The position numbers and the translations under genes were made by a program. A stretch of DNA of 64,000 nt from a bacterium (GTDB lineage: Bacteria > Patescibacteriota > Patescibacteriia > Patescibacteriales > XYC2-FULL-47-12). Below the pieces are notes generated by a model that was not told the DNA's origin, ran no database searches, and saw only the letters and a program-made list of their open reading frames with translations. Positions 3,309-39,306 of the stretch are shown here, one piece after another (the first letter of the stretch is position 1; each line of letters opens with the position of its first letter). Where the stretch lies: positions 1,301 to 65,300 of the forward strand of contig JAUYLZ010000022.1 in assembly GCA_030698385.1 (NCBI GenBank). The letters run 5' to 3'.

Positions 3309-4835
3309 ATGTCCTACGATGTCATTATCGGTCTGGAAGTGCATGTCCAGCCAAATACCAAAAGCAAAATGTTCTGCCGTTGCCGCAATCTCAACGAAGA
3401 TGTTGGTAAAGAGCCAAACTCAACCGTTTGCCCGATTTGTCTTGGCCATCCGGGGACTCTGCCGGTTATTAATAAAAAAGCGATTGAATTAACCGTTCTC
3501 GCCGGTTTGGCATTGGAGGGTGAAATTAATACCTACTCAAAATTTGACCGCAAGCACTACTTCTATCCGGACTTGCCAAAGGCCTATCAAATCTCCCAGT
3601 ACGACCTGCCGCTGGTCTATAACGGACATTTAAATATTGACGGTCATGATATAAAAATTACCCGTATTCATCTCGAAGAAGACGCCGGCAAACTGACGCA
3701 TCCGGCCGGAAAAAACTATTCGCTCGCCGATTACAACCGCGCCAGTTCCCCGCTGATGGAGCTTGTCACGGAACCCGTAATTAAATCCGCCCAAGAAGCA
3801 AAAAAATTCTGCCAGAAATACCAGCAAATCCTCCGCTATCTCGAAATCGCCGAAGCAGACATGGAAAAAGGCCAGATGCGCTGTGAGGCAAACCTAAGCC
3901 TGCAGGAAAAAGGCAAATGGCGCTACGATGAAGAAAAAGGCGCAATTGAGCCGATCGGCAATTATAAACTCAACGGCAAAGTTGAACTGAAAAATATTAA
4001 TTCTTTTAAAGCGATGGAGCGCGCGATTGAGTATGAAATCAGGCGGCAAACAGAAGCGCTCAATAATAACGAGACAATCCCGCAGGAAACGCGCGGCTGG
4101 GATGAAGATACGCAAAAAACCGTTAGCCAGCGTTCAAAGGAAGAGGCGAATGATTACAGATATTTTCCTGATCCGGATATCTCGCCTTTTGTCATTGATG
4201 CCGACTGGCTGAAAAAAATCAGAGCGGACTTGGTTGAGCTCCCTGACGCAAAAATTGCCCGATTCAAAAAGCAATACGGTTTTTCGCTATATGACGCTGA
4301 AATGCTAACCGCTGACAAAAATGTGGCTAAATTTGTTGAAGAAGTGATTTCTGAGTTACGCGCTTGGGTAAATACCAATGGCCACAACTGGGAAACGGCG
4401 CAGACAAAGCTGGCTAAACTCACCGGCAACTGGATTGGTACGGAGCTGTTTAAATATTTCAATGAAACCAAAACCGGCATTAAAGATATTAAAATTACCG
4501 CCGAAAATTTCGCGGAATTTATCGCGATTATTTTTGAGGACAAGGTAAACTCAACGGCGGCGCAAATAATTTTTAAAGAATTATACGAAAACGGCGGTGA
4601 TCCGTCAGATATCATGAAAGCTAAAAAATTAGAACAAATGGACAATGACGATGAACTTTCCGATATTATTCATGAAGTTATCGCGAAAAATGAAAAAGCG
4701 GTAAATGAATTCAAATCCGGTAAAGAAAATGCTCTTCAGTTCTTGGTCGGACAGGTCATGGCGGCGAGCAAAGGCAAGGCCAATCCACAAAAAACAAAAG
4801 AATTACTGGAAAAAAATATTAAAAATAACGCCTGA
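3300..4835 (+). CDS. gatB: Asp/Glu-tRNA amidotransferase subunit B
   Basis: YDVIIGLEVHVQ, CPICLGHPGTLP and a C-terminal GatB/YqeY tail (LQFLVGQVMAASKGKANP). The likely true start is ATG 3309 (MSYDV). Confidence 0.95.
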   Translation: MFIMSYDVIIGLEVHVQPNTKSKMFCRCRNLNEDVGKEPNSTVCPICLGHPGTLPVINKKAIELTVLAGLALEGEINTYSKFDRKHYFYPDLPKAYQISQYDLPLVYNGHLNIDGHDIKITRIHLEEDAGKLTHPAGKNYSLADYNRASSPLMELVTEPVIKSAQEAKKFCQKYQQILRYLEIAEADMEKGQMRCEANLSLQEKGKWRYDEEKGAIEPIGNYKLNGKVELKNINSFKAMERAIEYEIRRQTEALNNNETIPQETRGWDEDTQKTVSQRSKEEANDYRYFPDPDISPFVIDADWLKKIRADLVELPDAKIARFKKQYGFSLYDAEMLTADKNVAKFVEEVISELRAWVNTNGHNWETAQTKLAKLTGNWIGTELFKYFNETKTGIKDIKITAENFAEFIAIIFEDKVNSTAAQIIFKELYENGGDPSDIMKAKKLEQMDNDDELSDIIHEVIAKNEKAVNEFKSGKENALQFLVGQVMAASKGKANPQKTKELLEKNIKNNA

Positions 4836-4940: not shown

Positions 4941-5618
4941 ATGAAAAAACAGTACAGACACGGATATTGGAAAGATTTGTTTTATGGCGCCAAAAGCACT
5001 CTACGCGACATTTCAACTACGAAGCTAAATAACTTTATTGCCAACAGCTGGACTTTTCCCAGCCACCGCAAACTGGTTGCTCAAGAGCTAATCCGCAGAA
5101 ATGAGCTGCACGGTTTGCAATTCGTTATCAAATATGGGCCAACTTATTTCTTGAGATGGCGCGCCTCGCGTCAAGCACTGAAACATCCGGACATGGGAGC
5201 CGGCTTTGCCGCGCATATTATGGAGTACGATTGGCTGCACTGTTTTTCCGCCTGGCGCTGGCTAATGAAAAAGGATTTGCGTCACTCATACGAAAGAGCG
5301 ATGATTAGCAGCGTGGTGATTAGCTGTTGTTCATTTTTTTGGAAAAGCGTTGCGTTCATTAAGTTGCTGCGCCTGGGCGTTACCGCTGGAGAATTAACAT
5401 CTCTGATTATGTACGGAACGCCGTTTTGGCAAGAAATTGCCTGGCAGCTGCTCCCGTTCCTGAATGATAAACATTATATAAGAAACATAAATTTCATCTA
5501 CGCCTGCAGCTATGAAAAAAGTCCGAAAATTTGGGGCGGCAATCCGGATAAATGGAAAAAGCGAGCCGCCAAAATTCTTGAATTAAACAATTTACCAAAA
5601 CATGAATTTGACTGGTAA
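4941..5618 (+). CDS. Hypothetical Trp-rich protein
   Basis: Long ORF with AAAGGAGAA upstream of the ATG and its own terminator. No recognisable motif. Confidence 0.5.
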   Translation: MKKQYRHGYWKDLFYGAKSTLRDISTTKLNNFIANSWTFPSHRKLVAQELIRRNELHGLQFVIKYGPTYFLRWRASRQALKHPDMGAGFAAHIMEYDWLHCFSAWRWLMKKDLRHSYERAMISSVVISCCSFFWKSVAFIKLLRLGVTAGELTSLIMYGTPFWQEIAWQLLPFLNDKHYIRNINFIYACSYEKSPKIWGGNPDKWKKRAAKILELNNLPKHEFDW

Positions 5619-6280: not shown

Positions 6281-7210
6281 TTAAAGCCAATGCTTTACGA
6301 TTTTTTTTGCCTGCGAATAATTTTTTATCCAATTTATCACCCTGCCCTGCCGCTCCCAGCGCCGCAACCATGACATTTGGCGTTTGGCAAACTGGTGAAT
6401 GGCCGTACTCAAATCATCAATAAACTCATCTTTTAGCGTAATGCCATTTACGAAATAGGTCGTATGTTTATACTCAAGACCGAAGCTTTTTAGCCGCCGC
6501 CAGCTTATTCCTTCCGCGTGCAAACGTTCTACTTCTTCAATCAGGCCTTCATTTTCAATTCGTTGAACTAATCGTTTATCGATTTTTTTATTTATTTTTT
6601 CACGGTCCAAATTAATACCCAGCAATAAACAGTCGTAATCACTGCCTTTTTTTTGCAAAGTTTCGGTCAGCGGTTTTTCCGTTTGTTTCACAATCTCAAT
6701 ATAACGAATTAAGTAGCGCTTATTTTGAATTATACTTTGAAAACTCGGATCCAATTTTTTTAGTATCTTTTGCAACTCTTTAATCGGCTTTTTTTTCAAA
6801 CTATTTCGCAACTCCTTATCCGGCTTCACATTATTAAGGCTGTAACCGTCAACAATTGCCTGTGCATAAAGTCCGGTGCCACCGACTAAAATTGGCAATT
6901 TGCCTCGCTGTTGAATATTTTTAATTGCTTTACTCGCGCATTTTATATATTTAGCCAAATTAAAATCTGTCTTTGGGCTGACAACATCAATACAATGGTA
7001 ATTAATTTTTTGAATTTTGTAGTTTAAAATTTTCAAAATATACTCATCTAAATCCTTTCCGGTGCCAACATCCATGCCCTTATAAACCTGCCGGCTATCA
7101 GCGCTGACAATTTCACCATCAAAGATACTGGCCAATTTCACGGCTAGCTTGGTTTTTCCAGTGGCGGTAGGACCGACAATTACTAGTAGTTTTTTATTGC
7201 CTTTTTTCAT
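6281..7210 (-). CDS. miaA: tRNA dimethylallyltransferase
   Basis: VIVGPTATGKT P-loop, SADSRQVYKGMDVGTGK and overall MiaA length. Confidence 0.9.
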   Translation of the reverse strand: MKKGNKKLLVIVGPTATGKTKLAVKLASIFDGEIVSADSRQVYKGMDVGTGKDLDEYILKILNYKIQKINYHCIDVVSPKTDFNLAKYIKCASKAIKNIQQRGKLPILVGGTGLYAQAIVDGYSLNNVKPDKELRNSLKKKPIKELQKILKKLDPSFQSIIQNKRYLIRYIEIVKQTEKPLTETLQKKGSDYDCLLLGINLDREKINKKIDKRLVQRIENEGLIEEVERLHAEGISWRRLKSFGLEYKHTTYFVNGITLKDEFIDDLSTAIHQFAKRQMSWLRRWERQGRVINWIKNYSQAKKIVKHWL

Positions 7211-32985: not shown

Positions 32986-33225
32986 CTATCTGCTAAATTG
33001 AAGCTGTTGTATGCCGACAAACTGATTTTGCGGAATATTTGCCTCAAAGAATTTCTCGTCCACATCTAAACAAAGCCCGACTACCTCGTTCAGCCGCCGA
33101 TACAACTCCGGCAATGTTTTTGCCTGCGTATAACAACTGCGCAAAGCCGGCACCCGGCCAAGATAATAACCGCTATCATCTTTTTCAATAATCACCGAAA
33201 AATTATAAATTTTTCTTTTTTTCAT
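32986..33225 (-). CDS. hicB: HicB-like antitoxin
   Basis: YNFSVIIEKDDSGYYLGRVPALRSCYTQAKTLPELYRRLNEVVGLCLD (HicB N-terminal fold pattern). Confidence 0.7.
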   Translation of the reverse strand: MKKRKIYNFSVIIEKDDSGYYLGRVPALRSCYTQAKTLPELYRRLNEVVGLCLDVDEKFFEANIPQNQFVGIQQLQFSR

Positions 33226-33574
33226 ATAAAAAACTTGAATTTTTTATTAGTATTTTACAAAATAAAGGTTCAGCTTTGGGAGAGGGGATAGATTGGATAA
33301 TGCGAAAAATTCCTTCGGTGTTAGCGCAATCGGTTTCACGCATTTTCCCATCTTCAGCCGGCATTTTTAACTGTTCCCAAATTGGGAACGGTTGAAAAAA
33401 TTCTTTATCTCTTTCTTTCATTTTTGCCCAATAAGTCTTGGGTTGAGGACTGTCAGTCAGCGCTTCAACTATATCAATAACGGAAAACCACCATTCTTTA
33501 TGATAAATAGTTTTTCTGATTCTTTTGCCTTTAAATAAAGTAATGCGGGTATTGCTATTTTTAGCGTTTTTCAT
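33203..33574 (-). pseudogene. Truncated Bro-N domain gene (paralog of 54604..55431)
   Basis: It shares IRKTI(Y/H)(H/K)xEWWF and CANTEGIFRIIQSIPSxKAEP with the 275-aa paralog. Homology stops after AEP and the ORF runs 23 nt into hicB. Confidence 0.6.
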
Positions 33575-37637: not shown

Positions 37638-37898
37638 TTATTTTTTATTGTACTTATCCATTTCCTTAAATGAATCTCTTACCAGACCAAACATGGATAT
37701 GGCAAAAGCTATGCCTACAGTTAACAAAAAAAGCCATGGTTCTGTATCATAACGCCGGTCCAACCATTTCCCCAGATATATCGCCAGAACTACCGGTCCG
37801 ATTATCCAACCGGACAGGCGCGTAAACATAAGTAGCGCCGGTTGCCACCAGGCGGCGACATCTTCTTCTTTTTTTTGTTTATCTTCGCTAATTTGCAT
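37638..37898 (-). CDS. AtpZ/AtpI-like small membrane protein
   Basis: 86 aa, two TM helices, first gene of the atp operon, preceded by AAGGAGG. Confidence 0.6.
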   Translation of the reverse strand: MQISEDKQKKEEDVAAWWQPALLMFTRLSGWIIGPVVLAIYLGKWLDRRYDTEPWLFLLTVGIAFAISMFGLVRDSFKEMDKYNKK

Positions 37899-37942: not shown

Positions 37943-37971
37943 ATTATAATGTAATGCTAGCTAACAGTCAA
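37943..37971 (-). promoter_or_regulatory. atp operon promoter TTGACT-17-TATAAT
   Basis: The minus strand reads TTGACTgttagctagcattacatTATAAT, about 45 nt upstream of the atpZ start. Confidence 0.55.
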
Positions 37972-38000
37972 TTGACAAAATATAGTAATATTATTATAAT
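37972..38000 (+). promoter_or_regulatory. Divergent consensus promoter TTGACA-17-TATAAT facing the tRNA cluster
   Basis: TTGACAaaatatagtaatattatTATAAT, back to back with the atp promoter. Confidence 0.5.
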
Positions 38001-38091: not shown

Positions 38092-38166
38092 CGGGATGTA
38101 GCTCAGTTGGCAGAGCGCTCGCTTAATGAAAGCGAATGGCCGCAGGTTCGAATCCTGTCATCTCGA
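38092..38166 (+). tRNA. tRNA-like gene with canonical acceptor, D and T arms but an expanded or shifted anticodon arm; anticodon not assignable
   Basis: Acceptor CGGGATG/CATCTCG, D-loop AGTTGGCA, T-arm GCAGG-TTCGAAT-CCTGT. The anticodon region CTCGC-TTAATGAAA-GCGAA is either a 4-bp stem with a 9-nt loop or a shifted 5-bp stem TCGCT/AGCGA with loop TAATGAA that lacks U33. Confidence 0.6.
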
Positions 38167-38184
38167 ATTTATTTTAAAAAAAAT

Positions 38185-38257
38185 ACGCGCGTAGCTCAGT
38201 TAGCAGAGCGTTTGCTTGGTAAGCAAAAGGTCACTGGTGCAAATCCAGTCGCGCGGT
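38185..38257 (+). tRNA. tRNA-Thr (anticodon GGT) with atypical elbow and 1:72 mismatch
   Basis: Anticodon arm TTTGC-TTGGTAA-GCAAA. The D-loop is AGTTAGCA (A at the G18 position) and the T-loop is TGCAAAT (G at the U55 position). The acceptor ACGCGCG/CGCGCGG gives A1:G72. Confidence 0.7.
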
Positions 38258-38277
38258 TTTCCCTGAGCTCTTTATAC

Positions 38278-38349
38278 GGGTCCGTAGTTTAATTAAAACG
38301 CTTGCCTGATAAGCAAGAAATGTGGGTTCCAATCCCAACGTGAGACCCG
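38278..38349 (+). tRNA. tRNA-Ile(GAT)-like gene with 5-nt D-loop and a 3-nt bulge in the acceptor stem (possible pseudogene)
   Basis: Anticodon arm CTTGC-CTGATAA-GCAAG. The D arm is GTTT-AATTA-AAAC with no GG. The T-loop is TTCCAAT. The 3' acceptor strand CG[TGA]GACCC pairs with GGGTCCG only if TGA bulges out. Confidence 0.5.
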
Positions 38350-38366
38350 TCTCAAAATCCCCCTGT

Positions 38367-38427
38367 CTTTGGGGAAAGGACATACTACAAAAATCTGTTA
38401 ATTTCGTAACAGTGCGTAGTATGTCCT
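38367..38427. terminator. Long nested hairpin terminator between the tRNA cluster and tatD
   Basis: AGGACATACTAC...[CTGTTA-atttcg-TAACAG]...GTAGTATGTCCT followed by GTTTTATTTT. Confidence 0.65.
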
Positions 38428-38430
38428 GTT

Positions 38431-39306
38431 TTATTTTATGCCAAATAGCGCCTGCGCGTTTTGCGTGGTTGCTTTGGCTACTGATTCAACGGTAATATTT
38501 TTTAATTCGGCGATTTTTTTAGCAACTTCAACAACATAGCTAGGTTCATTTCTTTTACCGCGCTGTGTCGCCGGCGCCATGAACGGTGAATCTGTTTCAA
38601 TCATAATTTTATTAAGCGGTACCTTGCGCAAGAGATCATCCCAGGAATTGTTAAAAGTGATTAAACCGGTAAAAGAAATTAAAAATCCAAGGTCAAAGTA
38701 CTGCCAAGCAAGTTCCCAGTCTCCGGAAAAACAATGCATCACGCCTTTCAAGGCGCCGCTACGGCTTGGTTTGCGGCTATAAAAATCTTTTATTAATTTC
38801 AACACGTCATCGTGAGCGTCTCGGCAATGAATTATTGCCGGCTTGCCAATGTCATTAGCCAGTTCAAGCTGTTGTAAAAAGGTAAACTGTTGCAGTTGCT
38901 GATTTTGCCGCACCTTTGTCTTATCTTCCGGCAAACCTGTCTGTCCGATAGGCAGATAGTGGTAATCCAAACCAATCTCCCCAATCGCCACAACCTTGCC
39001 GCTTTGCGCCAAGCGCTGATAACTGTCATAGTCGAAACGTTCGCCCTTCATTTTTATCTTTTTCCCTTCTTCTTCAAATTCAGAGTCCTGCAAGTGAACT
39101 GGATGCAGGCCAACTGCCGCGTAAACTCCGGCCTCATATTTCCTGGCAATCTCAACTGCGCGCTTGGAGCTCTTTAATTCGGTCGCCGGAATAATTAGAC
39201 TGATTTTTTGATCCAGCGCGCGCCGAATCACGGCATCCACGTCTTTGGTGTATGCCTGAAAATTCAGGTGGCAGTGAGTATCAATGAGTTGAAAGCCGTT
39301 AGCCAT
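38431..39306 (-). CDS. tatD: TatD-family metal-dependent hydrolase
   Basis: LIDTHCHLNF start motif, IGEIGLDY, HCRDAH and ETDSPF motifs. Confidence 0.85.
   Translation of the reverse strand: MANGFQLIDTHCHLNFQAYTKDVDAVIRRALDQKISLIIPATELKSSKRAVEIARKYEAGVYAAVGLHPVHLQDSEFEEEGKKIKMKGERFDYDSYQRLAQSGKVVAIGEIGLDYHYLPIGQTGLPEDKTKVRQNQQLQQFTFLQQLELANDIGKPAIIHCRDAHDDVLKLIKDFYSRKPSRSGALKGVMHCFSGDWELAWQYFDLGFLISFTGLITFNNSWDDLLRKVPLNKIMIETDSPFMAPATQRGKRNEPSYVVEVAKKIAELKNITVESVAKATTQNAQALFGIK

Follow-up and report, generated by a model that had tools for sequence, protein, structure and literature searches.

A tRNA Gene Cluster of Variable Content with a Compensated Elbow Pair between the atp Operon and tatD of a Patescibacteria Chromosome

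We describe here a cluster of three tRNA-shaped genes, all on the forward strand, within positions 38092–38349 of a 64,000-nucleotide stretch of contig JAUYLZ010000022.1 (assembly GCA_030698385.1, Patescibacteriota lineage XYC2-FULL-47-12), which we refer to throughout as the window. The genes are tRNA 1 (38092–38166), tRNA 2 (38185–38257), and tRNA 3 (38278–38349). A preliminary description had held that every member departs from canonical tRNA architecture, and had offered functional unusual tRNAs (including frameshift or quadruplet decoders), decaying copies, and tRNA-like RNAs with another role as possible explanations. The features on which this was based are all present, but those at the elbow of tRNA 2 prove to be ordinary for the phylum, such that only its A1×G72 opposition is odd.

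Organization of the tRNA Cluster

The genes were called with ARAGORN and with the Rfam tRNA covariance model RF00005 (curated threshold 29 bits), and neither found any further tRNA gene in the 64-kb window. The Rfam scores of tRNA 1, tRNA 2, and tRNA 3 are 56.0, 62.2, and 40.1 bits, respectively, all above the threshold, and the E-values from the whole-window search range from 4e-11 to 5e-5 (2e-9 for tRNA 1), so that chance matches are negligible; the match of tRNA 3 is local only, covering model positions 6–65. ARAGORN, which had been proposed as a check on this region, called tRNA 2 as Thr (ggt), but it labeled tRNA 1 as tRNA-His (atg) and made no call for tRNA 3. We rejected the histidine label, because the gene has a Pro-like body and would have to be read with A33 and an anticodon beginning with A34. 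Each of the three genes carries a single stem mismatch, and CCA is not encoded 3′ of any of them. A match to the Y RNA-like family YrlA (RF02553) was also set aside, as it reaches 24.5 bits against a threshold of 69 and merely bridges the T arm of tRNA 1 and the D arm of tRNA 2.

The two upstream promoters and the strong terminator noted in the preliminary description are both in place. Promoter P1 (37972–38000, +) is a sigma-70-like TTGACA-17-TATAAT element matching the consensus at 12/12 positions, and P2 (38045–38073, +), also sigma-70-like, reads TTGACA-17-TAACAT (10/12) and ends ∼18 nt 5′ of tRNA 1. Downstream of tRNA 3, a small hairpin, CCCCC-N8-GGGGA (38358–38375, +), precedes an intrinsic terminator (38377–38440, +), which consists of a hairpin at 38377–38427 with a 12-bp outer and a 6-bp inner stem (folding z-score −6.5), followed by the T-rich tail UGUUUUAUUUU. 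The terminator directly adjoins the stop codon of tatD, which is convergent with the cluster, and it probably stops transcription on both strands. We infer expression, processing, and charging of the cluster along the following lines: transcription would start at P2, and perhaps also at P1, read through the three genes, and stop at the hairpin held in common with tatD, after which the transcript would depend for its maturation on RNase P, a 3′ nuclease, and, as no CCA is encoded, a CCA-adding enzyme.

On the other strand, a promoter-like site (TTGACT-17-TATAAT, 11/12; 37943–37971, −) faces the atpI-like gene and the atp operon. It has the palindrome GTCAATTGAC in common with P1; this palindrome, at 37962–37977, amounts to two back-to-back TTGACA −35 boxes, one on the side of the atp operon and the other on the side of the tRNA genes.

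tRNA 2 and the A18:G55 Elbow Pair

tRNA 2 had been described as a Thr-GGT gene with A at the G18 position, G at the U55 position, and an A1:G72 mismatch, and this description is accurate in each respect: A18 lies at 38202, G55 at 38239, and A1 (38185) stands opposite G72 (38256), with U73 as the discriminator. The acceptor thus comprises six pairs and A1×G72, the elbow combines A18:G55 with G19:C56, and the anticodon loop TTGGTAA has the regular seven nucleotides with U33 and a purine at position 37.

The elbow nucleotides were followed in two scans. Viral contigs were scanned with the exact D arm of tRNA 2, containing A18, and, as a control, with a D arm identical except for G18. G55 is found in 25 of the 27 distinct tRNA-folding sequences with A18 (T loop TGC... 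or GGC...), compared with none of the 87 G18 controls. A metagenome scan, in which the A18 D arm and the Thr-GGT anticodon loop were specified and the T loop was left free, returned 25 contigs, and all 25 Thr(GGU) genes carry G55. Most of these lie in the housekeeping order tRNA-Tyr–tRNA-Thr(GGU)–rpmG (–tRNA-Trp), and the L33 protein of one such contig matches proteins of Patescibacteria, Parcubacteria, and Nealsonbacteria. The adjoining tRNA-Tyr genes (n = 12) lie outside the search pattern and hence provide an independent test of 18:55 covariation: seven distinct A18 forms all have G55, while five G18 forms all have U55. Taken together, these counts identify A18:G55 as a normal alternative to G18:U55. 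It is a compensated elbow pair, usual in Patescibacteria and in many phage tRNAs, and not damage. We found no paper describing an A18:G55 pair.

Covariation had been suggested as a check on the odd positions of the cluster, and the two elbow positions do covary (the expanded loop of tRNA 1, discussed below, is not conserved in relatives). As A18/G55 is normal for tRNA-Thr(GGU) and tRNA-Tyr of Patescibacteria and for phage tRNAs, the supposed departure of tRNA 2 points instead to a working tRNA, and it is in this gene that the suggestion of functional tRNAs finds its support; it does not extend to tRNA 1 and tRNA 3 as decoders. Canonical tRNA-Thr(GGU) genes of Patescibacteria have in common with tRNA 2 the A18 D arm, the anticodon loop TTGGTAA, the variable loop AGGTC, the T loop TGCAAAT (with G55), C2-G71, and U73. 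They differ from it in all stem sequences, which are still paired in tRNA 2, in their G1-C72 pair where tRNA 2 has A·G, and in their location, adjoining rpmG, whereas tRNA 2 lies between the atp operon and tatD. The sole genuine defect of tRNA 2 is therefore A1×G72, and judging from its structure, the gene is most likely still usable as a tRNA-Thr(GGU).

The loci with A18:G55 (L088–L171 and L292–L316 in our numbering) comprise phage tRNA-Thr, tRNA-Pro, and several other anticodons, as well as tRNA-Thr(GGU) and tRNA-Tyr of Patescibacteria. A separate elbow variant was seen in the Val-CAC and Thr-TGT tRNAs of some Patescibacteria (L295 1301–1373, −, and L297 3628–3699, −), in which the T loop starts with TCC, placing C55 in the position of U55, next to an ordinary G18 G19.

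tRNA 1, a Pro(UGG) Body with a 9-nt Anticodon Loop

tRNA 1 is derived from a tRNA-Pro(UGG) and has a 9-nt anticodon loop at 38123–38131. Its acceptor (CGGGATG/CATCTCG), D arm (GCTC-AGTTGGCA-GAGC), and T arm (GCAGG-TTCGAAT-CCTGT) are of textbook form, as had been stated, and its elbow is canonical (G18 G19/U55 C56). The acceptor has seven pairs if G3·U70 (G3 at 38094, U70 at 38163) is counted, with C-G at 1:72 and A73 (38166) as the discriminator. The anticodon arm, CTCGC-TTAATGAAA-GCGAA, spans 19 nt, compared to the usual 17, and contains a C27·A43 mismatch. Of these features, G3·U70, C27·A43, and A73 are additions to the preliminary description. The loop TTAATGAAA can be read either as 9 nt or, in a shifted register, as 7 nt with A33, exactly as the preliminary description had it, and neither reading yields the standard 7-nt loop in which U33 is combined with a purine at 37; further pairing can also lengthen the stem to 7 bp, leaving a loop of 5 nt.

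The best matches of tRNA 1 among phage records are annotated tRNA-Pro genes, of which there are many, and the alignment with the tRNA-Pro(TGG) of Synechococcus phage S-SCSM1 runs end to end at ∼85% identity. Relative to this gene, the loop has changed from TTTGGGA to TTAATGAAA through the addition of two A residues and G-to-A changes at the former G36 and G37, such that the GG of the anticodon and G37 are gone (G35, G36, and G37 are lost). In the stems, G43 has become A, giving C27·A43, and C70 has become T, giving G3·U70. The substitutions of note all run in the G:C-to-A:T direction and none is compensated, so that tRNA 1 shows a recognizable parent together with uncompensated disabling changes, as expected for a pseudogene. 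An exact viral match to the anticodon arm was not found, and searches of tRNA 1 against E. coli and plasmid sequences were uninformative. We also considered a group I or other intron as the source of the 2-nt insertion and ruled it out, as the insertion is of 2 nt only and no intron family, group I included, is matched by Rfam in the window or in the corresponding loci of relatives.

Bacterial prolyl-tRNA synthetase (ProRS) reads G35, G36, A73, and G72. As tRNA 1 keeps only A73 and G72 of these elements, Pro charging and decoding of CCN codons by this gene appear unlikely, and it is best read as a tRNA-Pro(UGG) copy without codon-reading ability. A G3·U70 pair in the acceptor is a known identity rule of alanyl-tRNA synthetase (AlaRS), and the combination of G3·U70 with A73 is present both in tRNA 1 and in two canonical tRNA-Ala genes of Patescibacteria; it could thus let AlaRS charge tRNA 1, in which the 1:72 pair is C-G and not G-C.

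tRNA 3, an Ile(GAU)-like Gene

tRNA 3 likewise matches its earlier description as an Ile-GAT-like gene with a 5-nt D loop and a bulged acceptor. The D loop, AATTA, lacks G18 and G19, and the 3′ acceptor strand, CG[TGA]GACCC, forms seven pairs only if a 3-nt bulge at 38341–38343 is allowed. The gene further shows a G49·A65 mismatch in the T stem, a 4-nt variable region, and G73, where the discriminator of E. coli tRNA-Ile is A73; its anticodon loop, CTGATAA, is regular in its length of seven nucleotides, in U33, and in the purine at 37. G and C make up 41% of the gene, compared to 55% for tRNA 1 and tRNA 2, and phage records contain no close relatives of it. With several independent defects combined, tRNA 3 is unlikely to be the Ile(GAU) tRNA of this genome; we read it preferably as a copy of Ile(GAU) type that is older and further degraded.

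The Locus in Related Lineages

On one side, the cluster is flanked by the gene that opens the atp operon (an atpI-like gene of the ATPase_gene1 family at 37638–37898, −, followed by atpB, F, H, and A), and on the other by a convergent block comprising tatD, sua5/tsaC, cvpA, and ribonucleotide reductase. The TatD-family hydrolase (38431–39306, −) is identical to NCBI MDP3900030.1; its homologues belong to Patescibacteria, the nearest to Candidatus Falkowbacteria, and its best match among the genome representatives scanned is at 65%. With TatD as the anchor, we read the syntenic spacer in ∼14 Falkowbacteria-level lineages.

Six of these lineages have no tRNA gene at the tatD locus, while the other eight carry one to three genes, of differing identities. 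In L087, the closest relative available (TatD 80% identical), there is no tRNA gene and no remnant that aligns, and only the P1 promoter core and the T-rich tail can be aligned with the window. The remaining loci without tRNA genes are L010, L319, L330, and L331, in addition to L001–L003, where synteny is broken. The GTCAATTGAC palindrome site is kept in every syntenic relative, including those without tRNA genes, and its core GTCAATTGACA is conserved in all; a second TTGACA promoter directly 5′ of the first tRNA gene recurs in the tRNA-bearing relatives shown, and a hairpin with a T-tail, read from the sequences of the relatives, occupies the equivalent place. We note that in L087 nothing but a long, imperfect hairpin (∼150 nt; 1265–1420, −), which runs into the terminator tail, is present in the spacer, and that its promoter region contains a tandem duplication of ∼19 nt.

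The genes found at the locus are varied, and almost all of them are irregular, including some with a wrong discriminator. L317 carries a single tRNA-like gene (1741–1826, −) with a Pro-GGG anticodon arm, the D arm of which is replaced by a 7-bp hairpin (GACCTTT/AAAGGTC), and which is missed both by default ARAGORN and by Rfam at the curated threshold. L004 likewise has one tRNA-like gene, with an anticodon arm capped by cUUCGg. L008 and four identical strains carry a tRNA-Ala(TGC) with U73, and L007 carries a gene of the L008 type with C32 C33, G73, and a compensated change at 4:69. L321 combines a gene with the loop CATATAG (A33) with an “Ala TGC” gene that has A3-U70; as two other tRNA-Ala genes of Patescibacteria have G3·U70 and A73, the Ala genes at this locus deviate as well. 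L011 has a canonical Arg(TCT) gene and a gene (4958–5088, −) with an insertion of ∼54–62 nt in its anticodon loop, and L328 has a gene with the 8-nt loop TTCTAAAA (ARAGORN anticodon “ctaa”) and a gene (3438–3571, −) with a hairpin insertion of ∼58–64 nt. The acceptor, D, and T arms of these two inserted genes are normal, and the insertions form hairpins of their own; they do not align with each other, are absent from the syntenic gene of L321, are shorter than group I introns allow, and match no intron family. Running ARAGORN with introns allowed and a lowered threshold gave mostly false positives. The irregular sequences were recovered in identical form in separate assembly records. Between the tRNA-like gene and the terminator of L004 there is, in addition, a G+C-rich stretch of ∼130 nt (6945–7075, −) in an otherwise A+T-rich spacer, to which no Rfam family could be assigned, including at a permissive threshold.

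Despite this variability, the stems are kept. Over the twelve locus genes that could be parsed, there are nine mismatches in 252 pairs. Between the first genes of L011 and L321 (L011a and L321a), stem changes comprise three double and no single changes (random-placement P ∼ 0.002), and between L328a and the L004 gene (L004t), four double and two single changes (P < 5e-6). The anticodon loops and insertions of these orthologues are unalignable although the flanks are 75–88% identical, and the loop sequence of tRNA 1 is conserved in no relative. Among the four orthologues of the first gene, G3·U70 is found only in L004t, while L011a, L321a, and L328a have A3-U70, and the tRNA-Pro relative has G3-C70. 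An ancestral alanine identity of the first gene, which the G3·U70 pair of L004t and the tRNA-Ala(TGC) genes of L007 and L008 had prompted us to consider, was dropped in light of the A3-U70 pairs.

Interpretation of the Cluster

Our preferred interpretation, held with moderate confidence, is that the cluster is a lineage-specific accessory tRNA operon in a fast-turnover slot of the Falkowbacteria chromosome, in which tRNA 2 is probably usable while tRNA 1 and tRNA 3 are non-decoding relics. The genes are dispensable, in that L087 keeps the promoter core and terminator tail with no tRNA gene; their content is variable, differing from the window in every other lineage and thus not conserved in close relatives, as is typical of pseudogenes; and the changes of tRNA 1 are uncompensated. 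The window is bacterial chromosome that uses the standard genetic code, with long, uninterrupted open reading frames (ORFs) and, in a coarse check, ordinary stop-codon use, and it contains 1080 ATT/ATC and 400 CCA/CCG codons in a total of 16,834. Working Ile and Pro tRNAs must therefore exist, the Pro one of which cannot be tRNA 1, and we infer that canonical genes for both lie elsewhere in the genome.

Several observations weigh against turnover and decay. A single stem mismatch per gene is few for pseudogenes of any age, and a near-consensus promoter is kept directly upstream of the cluster. The irregular genes of relatives persist across 12–25% flank divergence with almost all of their stem changes compensated, which argues for selection on shape rather than decay. 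Redundancy with canonical Pro, Thr, and Ile genes is for this particular genome a presumption. Compensated stems combined with unalignable loops would fit either young, quickly deleted copies of working tRNAs or shape-selected RNAs that do not decode.

The latter possibility deserves serious consideration as the main, though less probable, alternative, in which the genes of the locus, including tRNA 1 and tRNA 3, form a family of non-decoding tRNA-shaped RNAs kept for the “top half” made up of the acceptor, T, and D arms. The anticodon arm of such RNAs need only be a hairpin, and they could carry amino acids for non-ribosomal transfer, with tRNA 1 as a potential alanine acceptor by virtue of G3·U70 and A73, or could engage tRNA-binding enzymes or nucleases, whether as decoys or as substrates. 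The hypervariable anticodon loop of the first gene (7 nt with A33 in L321a, 8 nt in L328a, cUUCGg in L004t, and 9 nt in tRNA 1) is in keeping with this, as are the 54–64-nt hairpin insertions in the second gene of L011 and L328, the four stems that stay paired through almost wholly compensated changes, the Ala(TGC) genes at the locus with U73, with G73 and C32 C33, or with A3-U70, the dedicated promoter conserved in tRNA-bearing relatives, and the identity of irregular sequences across separate assembly records. The staphylococcal non-proteinogenic tRNA-Gly, which lacks G18, G19, U55, and C56 (PMC4574755), provides a precedent. However, half of the related lineages, including the closest, are empty at the locus, which makes any such role dispensable, and different genomes do not carry members of one and the same family there (the genes are Pro-like, Arg, Ala, Thr, and Ile). 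In addition, G3·U70 is not ancestral, the neighboring genes examined include no tRNA-dependent transferase, the compensations could predate the loss of ordinary tRNA status, and the changes of tRNA 1 itself are uncompensated.

A more specific form of this idea, which we regard as rather unlikely, is that Falkowbacteria maintain fast-evolving non-decoding tRNA-shaped RNAs with a dedicated promoter in the slot between the atp operon and tatD, the helices of which are held by compensation while the anticodon arm is free to become a 4–10-nt loop or a 60-nt hairpin and positions 73, 1:72, and 3:70 drift. tRNA 1 would then be an anticodon-less amino-acid acceptor for non-ribosomal transfer or a decoy for tRNA-targeting enzymes. 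Between the two remaining suggestions of the preliminary description, decaying copies and tRNA-like RNAs with another role, the evidence on tRNA 1 and tRNA 3 is mixed: the uncompensated changes of tRNA 1 and the empty locus of L087 speak for decay, and the compensated stems of the irregular genes in relatives speak against it.

That all three genes are working decoders, with tRNA 1 reading a four- or five-base codon or shifting the frame and tRNA 3 acting as the Ile(GAU) tRNA of the genome, strikes us as highly improbable. Intact stems, a strong promoter and terminator, and the 8-nt-loop gene at the L328 locus would all suit such a role, and expanded loops are known from +1 frameshift suppressors (PMC7803779) and from yeast mitochondrial tRNA-Thr (PMC7609411). 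A quadruplet or +1 suppressor, however, would have an extra base extending the parental anticodon with its identity kept, whereas in tRNA 1 two bases are added, the GG is missing, and A takes the place of G37, leaving neither the Pro anticodon nor the frame-holding position of tRNA-Pro. Its loop can close into a longer stem and recurs in no relative, and the closest relative lacks the gene altogether; on these points, the proposal of a frameshift or quadruplet decoder is unsupported. The long, uninterrupted ORFs of the window under the standard code argue in the same direction, as do the missing A73 and elbow nucleotides and the bulged acceptor helix of tRNA 3.

We attach next to no weight to the explanation that the odd positions are assembly or sequencing errors of this metagenome-assembled genome. 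In its favor, the window derives from one contig only, and the databases searched contain no further copy of it. Against it, the departures are many and diverse, comprising substitutions, 2-nt and 3-nt insertions, and the shortening of a loop; the covariation of A18/G55 is genuine; and relatives carry comparable irregular genes at the locus, with identical sequences in separate assembly records.

A phage or mobile origin of the cluster was also rejected, as phage records hold no near match to it and the flanking genes are housekeeping genes. Inside the atp operon, atpA is separated from the atp gene next to it by a 123-amino-acid ORF with a Bro-N domain (33203–33574, −), a family frequent in phages and mobile elements.

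From the perspective of annotation, the elbow of tRNA 2 illustrates that a seemingly broken tRNA may in fact be a compensated variant typical of its lineage, which bears on how tRNA genes are annotated in candidate-phyla genomes and phages. The locus itself is a single chromosomal slot, in a phylum with reduced genomes, in which tRNA-shaped genes switch identity and anticodon-arm form between genomes while keeping their stems. Should these RNAs have a non-decoding role, they would add a new class to the tRNA-like RNAs of bacteria; should they have none, the locus clearly documents, in a natural setting, how small genomes lose tRNA genes.

Comparison with Known Systems

The suppressors SufB2 and SufA6 derive from tRNA-Pro. 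tRNA 1 partially resembles suppressors of the SufB2 type in being a Pro body with extra anticodon-loop nucleotides. In +1 frameshift suppressors such as SufB2, which have an expanded anticodon loop (PMC7803779), one extra nucleotide extends the Pro anticodon and G37 is kept, whereas tRNA 1 has two extra nucleotides, has lost the GG, and has A in place of G37.

The staphylococcal non-proteinogenic tRNA-Gly species, which are thought to escape translation and to supply another pathway (PMC4574755), provide another partial resemblance through their idiosyncratic D- and T-loop nucleotides. They nevertheless have a normal 7-nt loop, a Gly anticodon, and a known partner in the Fem transferases, and the A18:G55 pair of tRNA 2 is a housekeeping feature of its phylum and not the mark of a special role. 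Group I introns are common in the tRNA genes of Patescibacteria (PMC13011429); tRNA 1 differs from these genes in that its insertion is of 2 nt and group I introns are not involved.

The closest described systems are bacterial tRNA pseudogenes, accessory tRNA clusters, and the polycistrons of irregular, allo-tRNA-like sequences that Mukai et al. (2017, PMC5389517; see PMC7609411 for a review) reported in bacteria from soil. As in tRNA pseudogenes and irregular polycistrons, several tRNA-shaped genes occur per transcription unit, many deviate from the 7/5 cloverleaf or from standard loops, their distribution among relatives is patchy, and their functions are putative. Irregular polycistrons have 8/4 or 9/3 acceptor/T branches, whereas that of the window cluster is an ordinary 7/5 branch, and most of its irregularities affect the anticodon arm, the discriminator, or the 1:72 pair. 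Again unlike the irregular polycistrons, the cluster occupies one fixed slot of a reduced Patescibacteria genome, with the atp operon on one side and tatD on the other, where the flanks examined hold housekeeping genes and no mobile-element genes.

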